NCBI GenBank assembly: GCA_031366795.1
Contig: JANLOX010000403.1
Span: 1 to 13,489 of the forward strand
DNA length: 13,489 nt
DNA from: Candidatus Eiseniibacteriota bacterium
Lineage (GTDB): Bacteria > Eisenbacteria > RBG-16-71-46
Direction: 5' to 3'
Notes under the pieces: model-generated
Database searches by the model: none
Told to the model about the DNA's origin: nothing
The model's input: the letters and a program-made list of their open reading frames with translations, nothing else
Shown: piece by piece, positions 615-13,345 of the stretch
Layout: every line of letters begins with the position of its first letter
How positions within the stretch are numbered: the first letter of the stretch is position 1
Program-made: the position numbers and the translations under genes

Positions 615-1409
615 ATGACTCCCGATCAGGAGCTTCGCTTGCGGGTCCGATCTGTCTCCATTTCCGGCTACGCGTTCCTGGCTGCATGCGTGTTCGCGAC
701 CCTCATCGGCATCGCCCCGGCCAGGATCACCTTCGCGGCCTCCGCAACGTTGCCGCCGGGCTTCGCCAATGTTCAGGTCGCCGGGGCGTTGGACGAACCC
801 GTGGGCTCGCGCTGGTTCCGGATGCCTCGCCGCTGCCGGCCCGCGTGCTGTTCGTCGAACAGCGCACTGCGCGCGTGCGCATGACCCTGGGCGAAGAAGT
901 GGTCACCACGTTTTGATCCGCAATCTCCCGGACGTCGTGGCACCCATCGCAAGTTACAACCACACCGATGGCGTCGTGGTCATCAGCGGCGGAGTGTACC
1001 GTCGCCCCGCGAGCGGCAATGTGCGATGCCCGCTCGAGTATGCTGGCAACTATTTCTTCCTCGACCACTACTCGGGATTCATGCGCCGGTCGACCGGAAG
1101 CGGTAATGCGTGGACGGCCGCGACCGCGGTGCCGGGGCAGCCGAGCGCGACCGACTGGGCGAGTGGCATGGAGAACGTCTCGAACATACTCGCCATGCCG
1201 GATGGTTCGCTGCTTTACGTCCGGCAGTCGGAGAACCCCGTCGCGCTCACGGCGGAGATCCGCGGCATCGCCGTTCTCGCCGCGGGATCGCATGGCGCTC
1301 ATGGGATGGCAACGATGCGAACGGCACCCCCGTCGCGGCGGGCCTCCACTTCGCGCAACTCGAAGTCCTGGGGCAAGTCGGCAGCACTCGCATCCTGCTT
1401 TTACGCTGA
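615..1409 (+). pseudogene. Degraded secreted PQQ-dependent glucose/sorbosone dehydrogenase-like beta-propeller protein with C-terminal FlgD-Ig-like domain
   Basis: Four consecutive pieces join into one protein. 615-805: signal-peptide-like hydrophobic stretch plus ATLPPGFANVQVAGALDEPVG. 806-~910, next frame: LALVPD...RVLFVEQRTARVR. ~910-1298, third frame: LPDV/APIASYNH..VVISGGVYR..EYAGNYFFLDHYSGFMRR..PDGSLLYV..EIRGI. 1299-1409, back in the first frame: WDGNDANGTPVAAGLHFAQLEVLGQVGSTRILLLR*. The family assignment is by motif recognition, not by a search. Confidence 0.75.
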
Positions 1410-1424
1410 CGGCACCTTGACACC

Positions 1425-3338
1425 ATGTCCTCCGTGAAGCACCTCACGTCCGGCTCCGCGACCACCCCCACGCGCGAACGGGGATCGATCGCAAGACTAT
1501 GGCGTTGGAAGGCGCTCAGCATTTCCGTGCTTGCGCTGGCCGCGATCGCGGCGCACCTGGTGATGCGTTTCGGGTTCCACGCCTCGTCCCAGACCGCAGA
1601 CCTGCCGTTGCTCGTGGGACTAGTGCTGGGCGGGATCCCGTATCTCTACGACCTGTTGCGCAATCTGCTGCGACGCGAATTTGGATCCGACCTGCTGGCC
1701 GGTGTTTCGATCGTCACTTCGGTGCTGCTCGGTGAATACCTCGCCGGCACCATCGTCGTCTTGATGCTCGCGGGCGGGGAGGCGCTCGAGAACTATGCCC
1801 TGCGCAGCGCCTCATCGGTGCTGGCGGCGCTCGCGAAGCGCATGCCCTCGATCGCCCATGTCAAGCACGCGGCGGTGATTGCCGACATCGCTCTGCAGGA
1901 CATCACGGTGGGGGATGAGCTCGTGGTGTATCCGCATGAGACCTGCCCGGTCGATGGCGTGGTCATTGAAGGCCACGGCGCCATGGACGAATCGTACCTG
2001 ACGGGTGAGCCCTTCCAGATCAACAAGACCTCGGGCTCGACTGTCATCTCCGGCGCGATCAATGGGGAGGCGGCGCTGACCATCCGGGCCACCCAGCTCG
2101 CGGCCGACTCCCGCTATGCGAAGATCATGGAAGTGATGCGCGAGTCGGAGTCGCAGCGGCCGCAGTTGCGACGGCTGGGCGACCAGCTGGGCGCCATCTA
2201 CACGCCGTTGGCGCTCTCTGTCGCCGGCATTGCCTGGGTGCTCAGCAGCAACCCCACGCGCTTTCTCGCGGTGCTCGTCATCGCGACACCGTGTCCCTTG
2301 TTGATCGCCATTCCGGTCGCCATCATCGGTTCGATCTCGCTATGCGCACGGCGGGCCATCATCGTGAAGAGCTCCGTCGTGCTCGAGCAGATCACACGCT
2401 GCCGCACGGCGATCTTCGACAAGACCGGAACGCTGACTTACGGCGAGCCGGCACTCACCGAACAACAAGTGGCACGCGGCTTCAACGCGCCTGATGTGCT
2501 GACGCTGGTGGCCAGCCTCGAGCGCTATTCGAAGCACCCGCTGGCCCGCGCCATTCTCGATGCGGCGAAGCAGGCCGGACTGCCATTGCTTGAAGCGACG
2601 GAAGTCTCCGAACTGCCCGGACTGGGGCTGCGCGGAACCGTGTCGAGCCGTTCGCTCCAGGTCACGGGACGCTTAGCACTCGACGCCGCACAGGTCAGCG
2701 GGATCGTGCCGGCGGCCGCGGGTGCTGGCGGACTGGAGTGCGTTGTGGTCATCGACAAGCGCTTCGCGGCGGCGTTCCGCTTCCGCGACGCACCGCGTTC
2801 GGACAGCGCGTTGTTCGTGAAGCACCTGCGCCCCAAGCACCAGTTCACCCGGATGATGATCATGTCCGGCGACCGGGAAGTCGAAGTGCGGCACCTCGCG
2901 GAGCAGGTGGGCATTTCCGAGATCTATGCCGGCCAGAACCCCGAGGACAAGCTGGCACTGGTGCGCAAGGAGACCGCGCTGGCGAAAACGCTTTACGTGG
3001 GTGATGGCATCAACGACGCCCCGGCCATGATGGCCGCCACGGTCGGTATCGCGATCGGGCAGAACAGCGACGTCACCACCGAGGCGGCCGGCGTCGTGAT
3101 CATGGACAACTCACTCAAAAAGATCGATGAGTTCATGCACATCAGCCGCCGCATGCGCACCATCGCGCTCCAGAGCGCAGTGGGGGGGATGGTGGTCAGC
3201 ATCGCGGGAATGATCCTCGCGGCGACTGGCCACCTGACGCCGGTCGAAGGCGCCGTCGCCCAAGAGGTCATCGACGCGCTGGCGGTGTTGAATGCCCTGC
3301 GCACAGCACTCCCGCCTCGCGTGATGGCCGACTATTGA
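1425..3338 (+). CDS. Heavy-metal-translocating P1B-type ATPase, P1B-5-like
   Basis: 637-aa ORF with TGE actuator motif (LTGEP), intramembrane TPCP (2286-2297), phosphorylation motif DKTGTLT (from 2418), SKHP, GDGINDAP and QEVID in the last TM (3261-3275). The start codon is uncertain because there is no clear SD before ATG 1425. Confidence 0.95.
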   Translation: MSSVKHLTSGSATTPTRERGSIARLWRWKALSISVLALAAIAAHLVMRFGFHASSQTADLPLLVGLVLGGIPYLYDLLRNLLRREFGSDLLAGVSIVTSVLLGEYLAGTIVVLMLAGGEALENYALRSASSVLAALAKRMPSIAHVKHAAVIADIALQDITVGDELVVYPHETCPVDGVVIEGHGAMDESYLTGEPFQINKTSGSTVISGAINGEAALTIRATQLAADSRYAKIMEVMRESESQRPQLRRLGDQLGAIYTPLALSVAGIAWVLSSNPTRFLAVLVIATPCPLLIAIPVAIIGSISLCARRAIIVKSSVVLEQITRCRTAIFDKTGTLTYGEPALTEQQVARGFNAPDVLTLVASLERYSKHPLARAILDAAKQAGLPLLEATEVSELPGLGLRGTVSSRSLQVTGRLALDAAQVSGIVPAAAGAGGLECVVVIDKRFAAAFRFRDAPRSDSALFVKHLRPKHQFTRMMIMSGDREVEVRHLAEQVGISEIYAGQNPEDKLALVRKETALAKTLYVGDGINDAPAMMAATVGIAIGQNSDVTTEAAGVVIMDNSLKKIDEFMHISRRMRTIALQSAVGGMVVSIAGMILAATGHLTPVEGAVAQEVIDALAVLNALRTALPPRVMADY

Positions 3339-3345
3339 GCCGCGC

Positions 3346-3762
3346 TCAAGCCACGTTCAGGGACGCGTCCGAAGACTCGATCGCGCGCCGGTGCCGGCGG
3401 CCCGCCGCATTTACGCGCCCGAATGCGGCGCGTAAACCATGCAGGTACAACCACGTGCCGGGTGTGCAGAGCACCCCGAACGCGTCGATTTCCTCGAAGG
3501 CAGATATCAGATTGTCGCGCAGCGCGGACTCGGCATGATCGACATCCGCCATGGGGCCATCGGCGAGCCCACGTACCCGGCGTCGATAGCGGGCGACCAA
3601 GGTCTCGAAGGCGAGACGGTCGCGCGCACCGGCGAGCCGCACCAATTCGCCATCGCCATGGAACTTGTATCGCACGGTGCGAAACGCGGAACCCAACACG
3701 CTGCTGGCCCGCGCGCGGCGCAGCATGGGACTGCTTGTACTCTCGTGATGTCTTGCAATCAT
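3346..3762 (-). CDS. ECF sigma-factor-like protein, region 2 only (~138 aa); standalone sigma2 protein or truncated remnant
   Basis: The translation contains DGELVRLAGARDRLAFETLVARYRRRVRGLA...DVDHAESALRDNLISAFEEIDAF....PGTWLYLHGLRAAFGRV...RR. This follows the ECF region 1.2/2 pattern D.ELV...GD..AF..LV.RY...V...A....D.AED..Q..F..A...L..F.....F.TWLY.IA.N. Start ATG 3762 has GGGAAGG upstream on the minus strand; the ORF track extends the frame to 3960. Stop TGA at 3348-3346 comes before any region 4. Confidence 0.72.
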   Translation of the reverse strand: MIARHHESTSSPMLRRARASSVLGSAFRTVRYKFHGDGELVRLAGARDRLAFETLVARYRRRVRGLADGPMADVDHAESALRDNLISAFEEIDAFGVLCTPGTWLYLHGLRAAFGRVNAAGRRHRRAIESSDASLNVA

Positions 3763-3926
3763 TGTTGCATCGCCTTCCCGGGGCACGGTCACGAATGGCA
3801 TCCATTCGCGCGAACCGGCCGCCACGCCCCGAAGGAAGCGCATCAATCGTGCCATCGCCTGCCAGCACGCTGCGGTGTGCTGCAGTGGGAGCGGGCTCCG
3901 GCACACCGGTCCCCATTTGGTCATGC

Positions 3927-3935
3927 TGCTATGCT
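3927..3935 (+). promoter_or_regulatory. Candidate extended -10 promoter element (TGcTATGCT) for cgs
   Basis: TG-n-TATGCT matches the TGnTATAAT consensus at the key positions and lies 62 nt upstream of ATG 3998. No recognisable -35. Confidence 0.35.
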
Positions 3936-3997
3936 GAGTTCGTCGTGTGGCTCGGGCCACGGCCTTCCGACGCCACGCTCACGGAAAGAGGCCGGCA

Positions 3998-6900
3998 ATG
4001 AATGACGAGCGCATCGCCGCTGCGAACACCGCGGCCCCGCCGCGCGAAGGTCGCGCCCGGCTGATCGGCCTGCACTCGAGCGCGCTGCACGGCGAGCTGC
4101 TCGGTGTGGAACGCCTCGAGGAGCGGGCCAGGGCGCTGGCCGCCGGTTACACCCTGGCGCGGCACTCACACCGGGGTCCAGTACGTGTCCAGCGCCGCCT
4201 CGTGGACGACGCCCGCGCGCTCCGGCATGCCTATCGTGCCCTGGCCGCCGATGTGCGCGGGGGGCGGGCAACCACCCCAGCGGCCGAGTGGCTGCTCGAC
4301 AACTTCCACCTCGTCGAGGGCGAGGTGCGCGAGATCCGGCATCACTTGCCGAGCCGCTACTACCAGGAGTTGCCCAAGCTGGCGACACGCGAGCTGGCGG
4401 GAACCGCGCGCGTTTATGCCATGGCGGTGGAACTGTTGCGCTTCAGCGACGCTCGCCTCGATGCGCAACGGCTCAACCGGTTCGTGACCGCGTTCCAGTC
4501 GGTGGCGCCGCTGAGCATCGGCGAGCTGTGGGCGTGGCCGAGCATGTTGAAGCTCGCGCTGGTCGAACACCTGCGCCGTCTCGCGGATGAACTCCTCGAG
4601 AGCCGCGCAGGCAGGCTGCTCGCGGATCACTACTTCGCGCAGTTCGAGGGCGCGCCCTCGGACAGCCGGCCACCACCGCTGCCCGAGGTCATCGACGTGG
4701 CCTTCGTCGACCAGTTGCTGCAGCGCATGCGCGAGTACGGCGCGGGAGCCGCCGCCATACGCAGGCAGCTGGAGGACCGCATCGCCGCGGCGGGCGCCAC
4801 CGTCGAGGAGGCGGTGCGTGCCGAACACCAACGGCTGGCGATGAACCACCTGTCGATGGGCAACTCCATCACCAGCCTGCGCCTGTGCTCCTCGCTCGAA
4901 TGGAATGATTACGTCGAGGGCGTGAGCCAGATCGAACTCATTCTGCGGCGCGATCCCTCCGGCGTCTACAGCCGCATGGACTTCACCAGCCGCGACCGTT
5001 ACCGCCGCGCGGTCGAAGAGATCTCGGAGCCCACCGGCGAGGCGCAGGTGCGCTCCGCCCTGCGCGCCATCGAGAGCGCGCGGCAGGCCGCCGAACAGCA
5101 CGGGGTCGAAGCGCTCGCCGCCCACGTCGGAATGCACCTGCTCGGCAGTGGGAGACGCGAGCTCGAAAACGACGTGGCCTACCACCCGCCGTTCGCCCAG
5201 CGCCTCAGGCGCATGATGCTGGCGCGGGCGACGTTCTTCTATCTCGGCTCCATCGCGTGCTTGAGTGGCTCCGGTGTGGCTGCCGCGGTGGCCGTGGTCC
5301 GCGCGGCCGGCGGACCGCAGGCGATGGAGTGGTGGGCGGCAGTCCTCGCGCTGGTGCCCGCCAGCGAACTCGCCCTGGCGATTGTGAACCGTGTCGCACA
5401 CCGGATGGTGCGGCCGTCATCGCTGCCGCGACTCGACCTGCGCCGCGGCGTCCCAGAACCGGCGCGCACCATGGTGATCGTGCCAACGATGATCTCGTCC
5501 GTCGATGGCGCTCGGGCGCTGGCCGATCACCTCGAGGTGCAGGCGCTGGCGAACACGGATCCCTGCGTTCACTTCGCACTGCTCACCGACTTCCCCGATG
5601 CGACCGAGGCATCCCTGCCGGGCGAGGATGAGATCCTCGCCGCCGCGGTCGCCGGCATCGAGGCGCTCAACGAGCGCTATGCCCCGGACCGTCACGACCG
5701 CTTCTACCTGATGCACCGCTCGCGCCGCTGGAATGCGAGCGAGGGCGTATGGATGGGATGGGAGCGCAAGCGCGGCAAGATCGAGGAATTCAACCGTCTG
5801 CTCCGCGGTGCCCCCGATACCAGCTTCACCACCCAGGTGGGGGAGCCGTCGCTGCTGCAACACATCCGCTACTGCATCACGCTCGACAGCGACACGCGCT
5901 TGCCACGGGATGCCGCGCGCCGCCTGATCGGCGTGATCGAGCACCCGCTGAACCGTCCCCGCTTCGATGCCGCAGTGGGCCGTGTCGTCGCGGGCTACGG
6001 CATCCTGCAGCCGCGCGTGAGTGTCACCATGGCGAGTGCCGCCGGGTCGCTGTTCGCGCGCGCCTACTCGGGACACACCGGCGTCGATCCCTATTCAACT
6101 GCCGTCTCCGATAGCTACCAGGACTTGTTCGCCGAAGGCATCTTCGTCGGCAAGGGGCTGTACGATGTCGATGCCTTCAGCGCCGCCCTGGAGGGCCGTG
6201 TGCGCGAGAACGCCATGCTCTCGCACGACCTGTTCGAGGGACTGTTCGCACGCTGCGCACTCGTCTCCGATGTCGAGCTCGTCGACGACTTCCCCTCCAG
6301 CGTGATCGCCCATACACGGCGCCAGCACCGTTGGGTCCGCGGTGACTGGCAGATCCTCCTGCACATCCTGCCGATTCTCGTGACACGCCGGGGGATCGTC
6401 GCCAGCCACCTGCCGTTGATCAGCCGTTGGAAGATCTTCGACAACCTGCGCCGCAGCCTGCTGGCGCCGGCACTGCTGCTCATGCTGGCCTCGGCGTGGA
6501 CGTGGCTCCCGGGATCGGCGCTGGGCTGGACCCTCGCCATCCTCGCAGTGGTCGCCTTCCCGCTGCTGCCGCCGTTGATGCACTTGATCGGCGGACCGCG
6601 CCCGCAGCAGCCGGGCAGCGTGTTCCTGCACGACGTCTGGTCGGAGCTCGAGACCGCGGGCGCACAGGTGTCGCTGCAGATCACGTTGCTGCCGTACCAC
6701 GCCTTCGAAATGGTCCACGCGATCGCGCTGACGTTGGTGCGCATGGTGATCACGCAACGCAGGCTATTGGAATGGGAGACTGCCGCGACGACAGCCGCGC
6801 GAGCCGCGGGCTTGTTGGCGCGCCAGGGCCCGCGCGTGTTCGCCGCCGAGATGTGGGCGGGCCCCGCAGCGGGGTTGCTGGTGTTGTTCGGGCTGCTGCC

Positions 6901-9900
6901 GCTGCATATCACTTCACTCGCCGTGGCATCGCCGTTCATCGCGGCTTGGCTGGCTTCGCCGCTCGTGGCGTGGTGGTTGAGCCGGCCCGTCGTCCCATTG
7001 CGCCAGATCCTGAGCGAAGCGGACGCGCAGCGACTGCGACGCACTGCCCGCAAGACGTGGCGCTATTTCGAGCGCTTCGTCACGCCTGAGGAGCATGCGC
7101 TGCCGCCTGACAACGTTCAGGAGATGCCGGAACTCCGCATCGCGCGCCGCACCTCGCCGACGAACATCGGCATGGGGCTGCTCTCGACGCTCGCGGCGCA
7201 CGACTTCGGCTACCTCGACACGCCCTCGCTGGCCGGTCGCATCGGCGCCACGCTCGCCACGGTCGAACAACTCGAGCGGTACGAGGGCCATCTGCTCAAC
7301 TGGTACGACACGGGGACCACGGCGCCACTCATGCCGCGCTACGTCTCGACCGTCGACAGCGGCAACCTCGCGGGCTCGCTGATGGCGCTGGCCGCCGGCC
7401 TGCTCGAGCTGGCGCACCGCTGCGAGGGGGACGGCCTGCCCGGGGACGAAGGCGAGCGGCGTTGCGCCGGTGCGATCGACACTGCGGGGGTGCTTGGCGA
7501 CTCGCTCGAAGCGGTTGCTCACGCTGCACATGCCGCGGCATCCCTGCTTGCGCGCTGCGCGGTGGCGCGCCGCGAGCTGGGCCTGCTCCGAGCCGCACTC
7601 GCGGGCTCCGGCGCCGCGGCGGAACGACTCGAGGCGGCGGCCCGTCTCGCCCCCACTGTGCGGTCCACGCTCGAACAGGTAGCGATGGCCGCCCCGGCTG
7701 GAAGTGACTCCAGTGAACTCGCGGAGTGGGGGAGACTGCTGCATGAAGCGCTCACGTCGCCCCCGGCGACCGGGCTCGCTCCGGGCGCGCTGCGTGCGGA
7801 ACTGCACGCGCTCGCCCTGCGGGCCGGCGCGCTCGCCGACGGTATGAAGTGGACGTTCCTCTACGACCGCACGCGCGGTCTGTTCTCGATCGGGTACCGG
7901 CTCACCGACGCGGAAGAGCCCGGCCGTCTCGACCCCTCGTACTACGACCTCTTGGCTTCCGAGGCGCGGCTCGCCAGCTTCATCGCCATCGCGCGCGGCG
8001 AAGTGCCGCAGGAGCATTGGTTCCGCCTGTCCCGCGCGCTGGTCAGCGTCGAGGGCTGCACAGCCCTCGTCTCATGGAGCGGCTCGATGTTTGAGTACCT
8101 GATGCCGTTGCTGCTGCTGCGCAGCCATCCCGAGACGTTGCTCGAGAGCACCTGCACCGCCGTGGTCCGCGCGCAGATTCTCTATGGGCAGCGCCACCGC
8201 GTGCCGTGGGGCATCTCGGAGTGCGCGTACGATGTGTGCGACCCGCACGGCAACTACCAGTACAAGGCATTTGGGGTGCCCGGTCTGGGACTCAAGCGCG
8301 GACTCGCCGAGGACCTCGTCGTGGCACCCTATGCCACCGCTCTCGCGGCGCTGGTTGATCCTGCGGCGGCTGCGGCGAACCTGCGCCGCCTCGCGCGGGA
8401 GGGAGCCACGGGAGCCTTCGGCTTCATCGAGTCGCTCGATTACACGCCGCGCAAGCAGCCGCAGCTCGAGGCCGAAGCCATGCGTGAAGCGGCGCGCCTT
8501 CATCCCGTGCGCGCCACCTTCGCGCACCACCAGGGCATGAGCCTGCTGGCGTTCGCGAATGCGCTGCTCGGCGCCCCCATGGTGCGGCGCTTCCATGCGG
8601 ATCCGCGCGTGCAAGCCACCGAGCCGCTACTGCAGGAACGTGTCCCGCGCTATGTCCCGGTGATCCGCCCGCGCCCACCCGAAACCACACGCGTGGAGCC
8701 ACTCGTACCGGCTGTTTCCCCAAGGCGTTATCGCTCGCCGCATACGCATTACCCGAACGCTCATTTCCTCTCGAATGGGCAGTACACCACGGTGGTGACC
8801 AATGCCGGTGGCGGCGCCAGCAGTTGGCGCGGCTACGCGGTCACGCGGCAGCGCGACGATCCCACCTGTGACCCGGGCAGCCAATTCGTCTACCTGCGGG
8901 ACGTGCGCAGCGGCCTGTTGTGGTCGGCGGCCCACCAACCCGTGTGCCGCGAACCGGACCGCTACGAGGTCACATTCTGCTCGGACGACGTGCTGTTCGA
9001 ACGCTCCGATGACGGCATCACGACGCGCCAGGAAATTAGCGTGTCACCCGAGGACGATGTCGAGGTGCGCCGCATCACGCTGACCAACCACAGCGACCGC
9101 CTGCGCGAAATCGAGGTGACCAGCCTGCTCGAACTCGTGCTGGCGCCGCCGGCGGACGATGTCTCGCATCCCGCATTCCAGAAATTGTTCCTCGAGACAG
9201 AGTACCATCCCGAGTTGACCGCGCTGCTGTGCGGCCGCCGTCCGCGCTCACCCGATGAACTGGCGCCGTGGGCCGTGCACGTGCTGAGCGCCGAACGCGG
9301 CGTCCATGGCGCGATCGAGTGGGAGACCGACCGCGCGCGCTTCGTCGGCCGCGGCCGCACGCCGGAGAATCCGGTCGCCCTCGATGGCCGCGCGTTGTCG
9401 GGCACCACCGGCGCCGTGCTCGATCCCGTGCTGAGCCTGCGCGCGCGCGTGCGCATAGCGCCCGGCGGCAGGGTGCGACTCGCCTTCGCGACCGGCATCG
9501 CCACGACGCGCGCCGCGGCGATCGCGCTCGCCGAGAAGTACGATGATTCGACCTCCGCAGCGCGTGCCTTCGCGCTGGCGACGACCCAGACGCAGCTGCG
9601 CCTGCAGCACTTGGGCATCTCCCTGGATGAGGCCCAGCTCTACGAGCGGCTCGCATCGCTGGTATTGTGGACCGATGCCTCGCTGCGCGCGGAGTCGGCG
9701 ATGATGGCCCAGAACACGCTCGGGCAATCGGGACTGTGGGCTCATGGCATCTCCGGCGACCTGCCGATCCTCGTCGTACGCATCGTCGAGGACACCGACC
9801 TGGGGCTCGTGCGCCAGGCGCTCAGGGCGCAGGAATACTGGCGGCTTAAAGGTCTGCGCGCCGACATCGTCATCCTGAACGAGCACCCGGCCACCTATCT

Positions 9901-12592
9901 CGACGCGATGCACGAGCAACTTCAGGCCGTGTTGGACAAGGGCACATGGGCCGCGTGGAAGCACCGGCCCGGCGGGGCCTTCCTGCTGCGCGCGGACCAC
10001 ATGGCGGATGCCGATCGCGTCCTGTTGCTGGCGGCGGCTCATGCCGTGCTCGGGGGTGAGCGCGGTGAACTGGCGGACCAGCTCGCGTTGCCCTCGGTCG
10101 AACCGCGTTGGCCGGCAGCATTGCATCCACTCGCCACACCCACGCCACGAACGGGGGGGACACCCATCGAGGTGGCGCCACCACCGCTCAGCCATGAGAA
10201 CGGCCATGGCGGTTTCACCGCCGGCGGACGCGAGTACGCCGTCGTGCTGCAGGGTGACGCCGACACCCCGATGCCGTGGGTCAACGTGATCGCGAACGAG
10301 CGCTTCGGCACCGTTGTGGGTGCTACGGGCGCTGCGTGGACGTGGTCGGGCAACAGCCGCGAGAACCGGCTGACACCGTTCGCGAACGATCCCGTTAGCG
10401 AATTCAGCGGGGAAGCGCTGTACCTGCGCGATGAAGACCAACAGGTCGTGTGGGGCGCCACACCGGGCCCGCTGCAACGCAAGCCCGACAGCGGGCGTTG
10501 GGTCACCCGACACGGCGCCGGCTTCACCAGTTATGCGCACGCGGAACGCGGCATCACCTGCGAGGTCACGGTATTCGTGCACGCCGAAGAACCGCTCAAG
10601 TTCACGCGCGTGCGGTTGACCAACCATGGCGCCGTTTCCCGGCGGCTCAGCGTATTCGCCTACAACGAGTGGGCGCTGTGCCCGCCACGCGCCGGCGAAC
10701 ACCGCTTCGTCGTGACGCAACAGCACGAACCCAGCGGCGCCATCATCGCGCGCAATCCCTATAACTCGGACTTTGCGGGGCTGGTCGCCTTTGCGCACTC
10801 CAGCCTGCCGCCCGCCTCAGCCACTGGGGACCGCCACGAATTCCTCGGCCGCAACGGCTCCCTGCGGCGCCCCGCAGCACTCGGCCGCATCGCGCTGTCG
10901 CAGCGTTTCGGCGCAGGGCTCGATCCCTGCGCCGCCATGCAGATACGCGTCGATCTCGAACCGAGAGAGACGCACGAATTCGTGCTGCTGCTTGGGAGCG
11001 GCCCGTCGGAAGCGGAGGCGCTGGCCTTGGTGAGCCGCTTCGGCAACACGGTCGCGGCGCAGGACGCGCTCGAGCAGGCGACCGCGAAGTGGGACACCAT
11101 TCTCGACACGGTGCAGGTGAAGACGCCCGACGACTCCTTCGACCTGATCATGAACCGCTGGCTGCTTTACCAGTCGCTCAGTTCAAGAGTCTGGGGACGC
11201 ACGGGTTTCTACCAGCCGGGCGGAGCCTATGGGTTCCGCGACCAACTGCAGGATGTGATGGCGCTGGGACTGGCGCGGCCGCAGTTGTACCGCGAGCACA
11301 TCCTGCGTTGCGCCAGCCGCCAGTTCGTCGAGGGCGATGTGCAGCACTGGTGGCACGCCCACACGGGGCGAGGCGTGCGCACGCGCTGCTCCGACGATCT
11401 GCTGTGGCTGCCGTTCGTCGTGGCGCACTATCTCGACTCAAGCGGCGATACGTCGGTACTCGGTGAGCCCGTGGCGTTCCTCGAAGCGCCGGTGCTCGCC
11501 CCCGGGGAGTTGGAGGCGTACGGGCAGCCGCAGGTCTCCGCCCAGCAGGCCACCCTCTACGAACATTGCGTCAGGGCCATCGAACACGGCCTGACCATCG
11601 GCCGCCATGGGTTGCCGCTGATCGGCACCTGCGACTGGAACGATGGCATGAATCGCGTGGGCCAAGGGGGCCGCGGTGAAAGCGTGTGGCTGGGCTGGTT
11701 CCTCGCCAAGATCCTGGGTGACTTCGCGGCCCACGTGGAAGCGCGCGGCGACACCGATCGCGCCACGCGCTGGCGCGCGGAGCGGGACCGCCTGGGCGCC
11801 ATGCTCGAGCAGGCCTGGGATGGCGCGTGGTACCGGCGCGCCTATTTCGACGACGGCACACCCTTGGGCTCGGCGCAGCTCGCGGAGTGCCGCATCGACG
11901 CCATCTCCCAGAGCTGGGCCGTGCTCTCCGGGGTCGCACCGGCGCGGCGCGCCGAGCGCGCCATGGATGCCGTGCGCATGCAGCTGGTGCGTCGCGATGC
12001 CGGTGTCATCCAATTGCTGGCGCCGCCGTTCGACCAGTCGAGCCTCGATCCCGGCTACATCAAGGGCTATGTGCCCGGTGTTCGGGAGAACGGCGGCCAG
12101 TACACGCACGCGGCATTGTGGACTGTCATGGCCATCGCCCAACTCGGCAGCGGGGATGAGGCGGTCGAGTTATTCCACATGCTCAACCCGATCAATCACA
12201 CGCGCACGCCTGCTGACGTCGACCGATACAAGGCCGAGCCCTATGTGGTGGCGGCCGATGTGTACACGCACGCGGCGCACATCGGCCGCGGCGGTTGGAC
12301 CTGGTACACGGGCTCGGCGGCGTGGATGCATCGCGTCGGGCTCGAGTCCATCCTCGGGCTGACGCGACACGGCGAGACCTTCGCCGTGACGCCGTGCATC
12401 CCTGGATCGTGGCCCGGATTCTCGCTGCGCTGGCGCTGCGGGACCACCCGCTACGCCATTGAGGTGCTGAATCCCGGGCACGCCAACCGCGGTGTGGTCT
12501 CGGCGACGCTCGACGGCGTGGCGGTCAACGCCAGGGCGATTCCGCTCAAGCTTGATGGCGCGGAGCACAAAGTCCTCGTGGTGATGGGGTAA
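3998..12592 (+). CDS. ndvB: Cyclic beta-1,2-glucan synthase (NdvB/ChvB/Cgs): GT84 synthase, TM region, glucoamylase-like transglycosylase/cyclisation domain, two GH94 beta-sandwich domains and GH94 phosphorylase catalytic domain
   Basis: Uninterrupted ORF. ATG 3998 is preceded by GGAAAGAGG, giving 2864 aa (the track starts at 3947). Motifs: GWERKRGK (5756-5779), TLDSDT (5879-5896), [21 protein letters not shown] (6320-6352), [29 protein letters not shown] (~8072-8107), WGISE (8207), [19 protein letters not shown]94 motifs: GFRDQLQD (11231), DWNDG (11633), ENGGQYTH (12086), WYTGSA. Confidence 0.95.
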
Positions 12593-13170: not shown

Positions 13171-13345
13171 CGGCGTATCTGGCGGATCGGGTGTGAGGTC
13201 GCCAGGGGATTACAAGACCGCACCCGTGGCATGAATGGTGCGGTGCTTCCTCGCGGAGCGGAGGACGCCGGTCCGATGCGCGAGCCGCACGATCCCCGAG
13301 GATGGAGGCCCAAGTGCCGCACGCCCGCAAGCAGTCCCGCACCGG

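Follow-up and report, generated by a model that had tools for sequence, protein, structure and literature searches.

Split sigma factors, namely SigO-RsoA and Sig7-Sig8 of Tn916, and the truncated sigma factors of phages are already known. The late sigma factor of phage T4, gp55, is a truncated protein that recognises only a -10-like element, has no -35-reading domain, and works together with gp33 and the sliding clamp. In the alphaproteobacterial general stress response, an ECF-derived sigma-like domain is found in PhyR, where it serves as a protein-binding mimic rather than as a sigma factor; the parts of this protein that resemble sigma-2 and sigma-4 are fused to a receiver. The beta' clamp helices are the common dock of sigma-2 and of NusG/RfaH, and in vitro sigma region 2 and beta' can together recognise and melt a -10 element. 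The B. subtilis genes yvrI and yvrHa are adjacent.

In both SigO-RsoA of B. subtilis and Sig7-Sig8 of Tn916, the sigma-2 function resides on a small polypeptide of its own, and in the latter system the sigma-4 partner is encoded in the same locus, as described in those parts of the sources that were available (PMC7826278; preprint 10.64898/2026.10.01.756105). EcfP, an ECF43-type sigma factor with no DAED motif in region 2.2, is reported to be intrinsically inactive until phosphorylated (PMC8999054, available in part); unlike the protein described here, it has the full length of an ECF and its own cognate kinase. Proteins without a sigma-4 domain are discarded in ECF classification 2.0, for which, in the sections of PMC7826278 that could be consulted, the criterion is a sigma-4 domain (PF04545/PF08281) within 50 aa of sigma-2. 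Hence families such as the stand-alone sigma-2 proteins described here are invisible to classification pipelines that drop proteins of this type, and a limited full-text literature search turned up no work on a stand-alone sigma-2 family that lacks a partner, or on such a family controlled by sigma-54.

The sigma-2 gene and its product

The window analysed here is a 13,489 nt stretch of DNA, contig JANLOX010000403.1 of a Candidatus Eiseniibacteriota bacterium. It contains, at 3346..3762 on the minus strand, an intact gene for an autonomous ECF sigma-2 domain without sigma-4. The frame encodes 138 aa without internal stops and ends in ...RRHRRAIESSDASLNVA*, with the stop codon at 3346-3348. A Shine-Dalgarno-like GGGAAGG, read from the sequence, lies at 3773..3779 (minus strand), 10 nt 5' of the ATG at 3762. 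Gene callers have used an alternative start at Met13, giving a product of 126 aa (P0003); the 138 aa form appears the more likely translation product, since P0006, a 76% identical homologue in which the 12 residues further upstream are retained, has Thr rather than Met at residue 13.

The gene is monocistronic, being flanked by a convergent and a divergent neighbour. The former encodes a heavy-metal P-type ATPase (1425..3338, plus strand; TIGR01525, E = 6.7e-144), whose stop codon at 3336-3338 is separated from that of the sigma-2 gene by 7 bp (3339-3345). The latter, cgs, encodes a 2864 aa cyclic beta-1,2-glucan synthase of the GH94 type (3998..12592, plus strand), the supersandwich and catalytic domains of which were matched with E values of 5e-152 and 6e-117 respectively. 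Its start is most likely the ATG at 3998, behind GGAAAGAGG, which leaves a divergent region of 235 bp common to cgs and the sigma-2 gene. The initial annotation had described an open frame preceded by a Shine-Dalgarno sequence, an ATPase stop codon 7 bp away and a divergent region of about 235 bp, and the coordinates bear out each of these. A scan of 3200-4100 returned neither sigma-70 promoters nor terminators. Elsewhere in the window there is a decayed gene at 615-1437 (plus strand), composed of the overlapping frames 615-884, 769-1437, 968-1420 and 1110-1409 with three stops in one read-through; the sole match of this region is a weak one to FlgD_ig (E = 0.061).

Thirteen NCBIfam sigma models match residues ~34-130 of the protein to profile positions ~11-106 of ~200, always in the first half of the model. 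The best of these, SigM (E = 2.4e-10, positions 11-106 of 204), gives 40 bits, far under its cut-off of 190 bits; judged from these alignments, the similarity to ECF sigma factors is real but degenerate. The Pfam model Sigma70_r2 (PF04542), with a gathering threshold of 24 bits, does not match the window protein at E ≤ 1. It gives 29.7, 23.8 and 18.8 bits with relatives from genomes G059, G057 and G023 respectively, and matches 27 of the 42 members of the family described below at E ≤ 0.01, the window protein not being among them. No member (0/42) is matched by Sigma70_r4 or Sigma70_r4_2, Response_reg found no match in the family proteins, and the open reading frame ends ~20 residues beyond region 2.4. 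With sigma-2 present and no sigma-4 within 50 aa, the 138 aa protein would be discarded under ECF classification 2.0. Weak matches to Pfam HTH_16 (PF12645) were seen in six of the 42 members, with a best E value of 1.4e-4, and the same domain is listed by the ESM Atlas on 12% of one look-alike cluster.

A profile built from the 42 members matches PDB structures of region 2 from E. coli sigmaE and P. aeruginosa AlgU (4LUP, 2MAP, 1OR7, 6IN7 and 6JBQ) with E ~3e-18, covering sigmaE residues 5-92. The AF2 model of the full-length protein (pLDDT 77, pTM 0.44) predicts helices at 12-33, 37-45, 49-68, 76-96 and 101-137; it had no match in the PDB with Foldseek, and a VIA-wide search returned only generic helical hairpins (Z ≤ 7.2). 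A model trimmed to residues 30-125 (pLDDT 75, pTM 0.57) superposes on region 2 of sigmaE, whether alone, with -10 DNA or with RseA, with TM scores of 0.78-0.84 and rmsd of 1.6-2.0 A over 86-91 columns. The protein is thus laid out as a family-specific N-terminal helix (~12-33), regions 1.2/2.1-2.4 (~35-118) and a short Arg-rich tail (GRRHRR..SSD) similar to the 'head' of the linker between sigma2 and sigma4 in sigmaE, which extends the last sigma-2 helix. Relative to sigmaE, it lacks the linker body and sigma-4, and it has in addition the N-terminal helix, an extra ~30 residues. The proposal in the initial annotation that this is a sigma-2-only derivative of an ECF is supported by the NCBIfam matches, the profile match to the PDB, the predicted fold (TM ~0.8) and the uniform lack of sigma-4; of the Sigma70_r2 match without Sigma70_r4 that it had expected, the lack of region 4 was seen throughout, and region 2 was matched in most of the family but not in the window protein itself.

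Residues were mapped to sigmaE with an offset of +30 before a one-residue gap and +31 after it. Residues D48, A51, F52, R58 and Y59 are the retained equivalents of sigmaE D18, A21, F22, R28 and Y29, D83 stands in the place of E52, and F95 and W104 correspond to F64 and W73, which in sigmaE form the pockets for flipped -10 bases (PMC6648896; preprint 10.1101/2020.08.17.253617; both available in part). By contrast, the acidic DAED-type stretch has become HAES, with S79 at the position of D48, Q51 is replaced by R82 and the wedge residue N80 by R111. According to the portions of PMC8999054 and PMC6648896 available, the changed positions are of importance in studied ECFs, whether for binding core or for melting. 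On this mapping, the core-binding and DNA-pocket residues are partly kept. The most invariant stretch of the family (TPGTW) is the loop C99-T-P-G-T-W104, lying between F95 and W104; the equivalent F64-W73 loop of sigmaE sets -10 specificity, as far as the accessible text of PMC6648896 goes. The largest subclade of the family has two conserved Cys residues, one at the sigmaE Q51 position (ALCE) and one in the specificity loop (CTPGTW), the first of these positions being Arg in the subclade of the window protein; redox control is a possibility for the largest subclade only.

A family of short proteins and its full-length relative

A word-indexed search found eight other proteins, all of 104-142 aa, five of them 76-85% identical to the window protein and three 41-49% identical, with no longer homologue among 2300 candidates. 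When 1.84 billion representatives, clustered at 50% identity, were searched exhaustively with the family profile, the top 34 clusters (E ≤ 6e-19) were of 73-194 aa. Thirty-two of these were of at most 152 aa, the two longer ones having low-complexity tails and no sigma-4, and the first full-length ECF appeared at rank 35. In each of the 13 loci that were read as DNA, the stop codon lies 16-39 residues past the WLYLHG-type motif; the loci were drawn from the window, two paralogues in G004, G016, G023, G010, G059, two loci in G057 and five metagenome contigs. The initial annotation had set out as a refutation that the closest homologues might all be full-length and the truncation unique; the opposite was found, since every one of the closest homologues is short and the truncation extends to the whole family. 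It had also suggested that the gene could be a remnant truncated when the ATPase arrived. However, the same end point is found beside unrelated neighbours in 12 other loci, so the truncation was not caused by the ATPase.

In a maximum-likelihood tree, 42 short proteins separated from the 48 nearest full-length ECFs on one branch with SH-aLRT support of 100, although this was calculated from few alignment columns (93, all in sigma-2) and with rows picked by their score to the family profile; the branch of short proteins is divided into three subclades. The family therefore appears, from its sequences, to be of single origin and derived from the RpoE-like ECF of the lineage. In the 25 closest DNA pairs (44-61% amino acid identity), Nei-Gojobori (NG86) dN/dS was 0.34-0.74 and pN was below pS in every case; this agrees with the dN/dS below one that the initial annotation had proposed looking for, but with synonymous sites near saturation it is only a weak test of constraint. 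Among near-identical strains in four sediment-metagenome runs there were only two SNPs in the gene, both nonsynonymous (L43R and D68E) and both changing to residues that occur in homologues; so small a number of sites carries no weight.

Among full-length proteins, the closest relative is a conserved RpoE-like ECF, ~205 aa long, found in 88 of the 89 genomes of the window's taxonomic family, and represented in the window's own genome on contig C171 (L030, ~3130-3753, plus strand). In that locus and in 27 others, this parent ECF is always on the same strand as, and behind, a conserved amidohydrolase-like gene. The short proteins are far more sparsely distributed: seven of the 89 genomes are carriers, six having core members (at least 140 bits) and G010 having a divergent short member. 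No member was found at E ≤ 1e-34 in the 117 genomes of the other 17 families of the phylum, such that in the genomes scanned the sigma-2 family was detected solely in a single taxonomic family within a Candidatus Eisenbacteria-type phylum. Both genomes of the same genus as the window lack a homologue beside cgs (74% nucleotide identity in both) and, in the one that has it, beside the orthologue of the ATPase. Hence, with this absence and only seven carriers, the gene is dispensable. The ESM Atlas contains further clusters of 119-149 aa 'Sigma-70 region 2 domain-containing' proteins from other phyla, some of which may be fragments.

The upstream region

A sigma-54-type promoter, with -24 TGGCAC and -12 TGC elements (TGGCACGATTGATGC), is found at 3840..3854 on the minus strand, 92 nt 5' of the start codon. 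The motif TGGCAY-N5-NTGC occurs 72-113 nt before the start codon in nine of 12 family loci, in register and in all three subclades, and is missing from the other three, including G057:C36. It was found in none of 28 regions upstream of the parent ECF and, between -130 and -50, upstream of only two of 205 other ORFs from the same loci, the overall rate being 26 matches in 638,148 nt. Taken alone, the occurrence in the window is not significant, as there are two matches where 0.48 are expected and 20 of 200 shuffles reach two. The second of these motifs (TGGCATGAATGGTGC), at 13227-13241 (plus strand), is just before ORFs 13235.. and 13072.., which run off the window. The conserved sigma-54-type promoter of the sigma-2 family is a new feature, missed in the initial annotation.

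The window's own genome contains rpoN (G000:C189). A response regulator of the sigma-54 activator type is divergent from the G010 member, and one of the G004 paralogues (paralogue 2) is adjoined by a response regulator and a hybrid kinase, with an activator 5.7 kb away; within the window, no sigma-54 activator gene was identified. Just upstream of the promoter there is an inverted repeat (3873..3908) with 13 nt arms, 85% complementary and separated by a 10 nt gap, which is a candidate site for a regulator or activator. From the -24 GG and -12 GC elements at a fixed upstream distance, rpoN in the window's own genome and the activators near relatives in G010 and G004, we infer that an enhancer-binding activator and sigma-54 would be needed to transcribe the sigma-2 gene.

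Downstream of the sigma-54 motif, the largest subclade has conserved blocks in the 5' leader (..CGTTC..GGGCC.GAT.CGGACGACGA.GGGGGAGG..ATG; L034, L018, L026, L039 and L015), kept although the proteins are only 55-60% identical; these could form a structure in the leader or serve as a regulatory site. A sigmaE-like sequence, GAACTC-N15-CCAAA, noted by eye in the intergenic region, was dropped as a candidate because the promoter of the parent ECF was not derivable, the sequence upstream of the parent being the coding sequence of a conserved gene; an ECF-like promoter regex matched one of 11 loci.

Genomic partners and possible modes of action

The relationship with cgs varies between the seven carrier genomes. 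In three the genes are linked: they are adjacent in the window, cgs is 1.8 kb and 8.3 kb from the two paralogues in G004, and the distance in G016 is 12.5 kb. Separate contigs carry cgs in G057, G059 and G010, and the G023 copy is in fragments. Thus the pairing emphasised in the initial annotation recurs in part of the family, yet cgs has no sigma-2 gene beside it in either same-genus genome. G059 also has a second cgs-like copy (C17:25489-28824), split over frames and with four TGA stops, which is probably a broken paralogue. Other neighbours of the family encode an OmpA/TSP3 outer-membrane protein, OMP beta-barrels, an L,D-transpeptidase, DUF892, YtxH and DUF948 proteins; these envelope and stress functions fit an RpoE-like ancestry, but are only suggestive of it. 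Small proteins of the general-stress type (DUF892/YciE-like, YtxH and DUF948) adjoin three family members (L024 9867-10370, L034 607-966 and L017 740-1159).

Within 1.5-3 kb of eight family loci, none of 110 ORFs of at least 130 aa and none of 102 ORFs of 50-129 aa encodes a sigma-4, nor is there an anti-sigma gene next to the sigma-2-only genes in these loci. An adjacent, co-oriented sigma-4 gene, of the type seen in the same locus in Tn916, is therefore absent from all eight, and a neighbouring partner for the split sigma factor that had been put forward initially is not supported. The window's own genome has 21 r4_2 and 18 r2 matches, and in five other carrier genomes there are many r4_2 matches. 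The initial annotation had proposed looking for a standalone sigma-4 gene; the window's own genome has one orphan ORF of 49-55 aa on contig C448 (L028 5974-6123 and 5669-6145, both minus strand), but this covers region 4.2 only (Sigma70_r4_2, E = 2.6e-10, positions 13-51 of 54). An anti-sigma-like ORF is directly behind it, and the fragment has the look of what is left at the 3' end of an ECF operon from which the sigma-2 part has been lost.

Our preferred explanation, to which we would assign a probability of about 0.4, is that the gene encodes a sigma-54-induced mimic of sigma-2, acting on RNA polymerase through the clamp-helix site of beta' and competing with, or retuning, full-length sigma factors. 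Sigma-54 and an enhancer-binding activator would switch on the gene, and the lone sigma-2 protein would then dock on the beta' clamp helices, where, not being a complete sigma factor, it would compete with or retune the full-length ones, the RpoE-like parent first among them. The invariant loop C99-T-P-G-T-W104 would still touch a -10-like non-template strand, or else some other conserved ligand, and the output may concern envelope or osmotic-stress genes, for example cgs. We infer the binding to beta', the loop contact and the nature of the output from the comparisons above. Competition is favoured because the protein has no -35-reading part, no linked partner and a descent from an RpoE-like parent. 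Against it are the weakened acidic motif (HAES) and the presence of R82 and R111 at positions for core binding and melting, and a lone sigma-2 should bind core far more weakly than tethered sigma-2 and sigma-4, going by the part of PMC6648896 available. The three of 12 loci that have no sigma-54 motif, the lack of significance of the motif within the window alone, the two nonsynonymous SNPs, the moderate dN/dS values near synonymous saturation and the dispensability of the gene also count against it. A complex prediction for the window protein with residues 270-375 of beta' (the clamp helices) scored 0.10, against a mark of 0.32, which speaks neither for nor against binding; beta' was taken from G016 because the window's own genome has no assembled rpoC N-terminus. 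Pure competition also leaves the invariant specificity loop unexplained, which keeps alive the readings in which the protein is a -10-only sigma, half of a split sigma or a pausing factor, whilst the weakened acidic motif does the same for a decoy.

It is somewhat improbable that the protein is a minimal initiation factor, binding beta', reading a -10-like element with its CTPGTW loop and opening promoters without a -35 contact, or else that it supplies sigma-2 to a split sigma, the sigma-4-like or flap-binding partner being encoded elsewhere. Such a role would suit the conservation of the F95-W104 loop, the family's most constrained stretch and the determinant of -10 specificity in sigmaE (PMC6648896, in the part available), along with the retention of both pocket aromatics and of the linker 'head' in the tail; there are precedents in SigO-RsoA and in Sig7-Sig8 (PMC7826278; preprint 10.64898/2026.10.01.756105; each available in part), and the orphan C448 fragment offers one sigma-4.2 sequence in the same genome. 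The difficulties are that the partners in Tn916 are paired in one locus (preprint 10.64898/2026.10.01.756105, in part), whereas no sigma-4 ORF is near any of the eight family loci and the C448 fragment is remnant-like. To these are added the replacement of the wedge Asn by Arg, and the finding, in the section of preprint 10.1101/2020.08.17.253617 that could be consulted, that AlgU truncations without region 4 are hypomorphs or nulls. T4 gp55 likewise has no -35-reading domain; however, it belongs to a phage and operates alongside gp33 and the sliding clamp, and against PHROGs the window protein had no match, two relatives having only weak generic sigma matches (phrog_1740, E = 7.5e-4 and 1.6e-5). 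Were the protein instead a decoy, titrating, in the manner of PhyR partner switching, a regulator of the RpoE-like parent, whether an anti-sigma factor or some other protein that binds sigma-2, induction by sigma-54 would switch the parent on. Its descent from an ECF present in nearly all genomes of the taxonomic family would accord with this, as would the weakened core-binding residues, appropriate to a mimic that should not block RNA polymerase, and the family-specific N-terminal helix, which could add binding surface; class I anti-sigma factors make contact with both sigma-2 and sigma-4 (PMC7406223, in the available part). Yet no anti-sigma gene was seen adjoining the parent ECF in the window's own genome or any sigma-2-only gene, anti-sigma affinity mostly requires sigma-4 too, and the protein has no receiver or other switch domain; PhyR has a receiver and a sigma-4-like part, and the weakened acidic beta'-contact motif that recalls EcfP is accompanied in the window by neither sigma-4 nor a kinase context. 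A decoy of this sort would be quite unlikely.

We consider it a long shot that the protein might be a sigma-derived elongation or pausing factor, residing on the beta' clamp helices of elongating RNA polymerase at the NusG/RfaH site and reading a non-template motif, for instance through the 8.6 kb cgs. The dock that sigma-2 shares with NusG/RfaH, the invariant specificity loop and the linkage to cgs in three of seven genomes would be compatible with it, and no -35-reading part would be required; nevertheless the case is made purely by analogy, cgs is unlinked in the other four genomes and no candidate recognition motif was found. Finally, that the gene is a non-functional ECF remnant, cut off by a local rearrangement, is scarcely credible. 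The window copy escapes Sigma70_r2, the gene is missing from same-genus genomes and both population SNPs are nonsynonymous, but open frames that stop at one shared point occur in 13 loci and ~34 clusters, a conserved promoter and Shine-Dalgarno sequence are present, motifs are invariant across proteins of 25-50% identity and pN is below pS in 25 of 25 pairs. A one-off remnant is rejected by the family-wide short length, the monophyly of the short proteins (SH-aLRT 100) and the open frames.

A more elaborate possibility, speculative and on balance unlikely, is that the sigma-2 domain of an RpoE-like ECF has turned into an autonomous accessory factor of RNA polymerase, made on a signal from sigma-54 and its activator, loading on the beta' clamp helices and with the CTPGTW loop reading a specific non-template motif; its role would be that of a minimal -10-only sigma, or of a pause or processivity factor comparable to RfaH for envelope genes, such as the 8.6 kb cgs. 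If true, this would be a natural experiment on what sigma-2 alone does in a cell. The family shows that a lone sigma-2 domain can persist for a long time with sigma-54-type control of its own, control that would link two unrelated sigma families in one circuit. Given the clusters of short sigma-2 proteins in the ESM Atlas from other phyla, the phenomenon may be wider, and the family provides a natural test of the -10 element's recognition and melting by region 2 and beta' observed in vitro.
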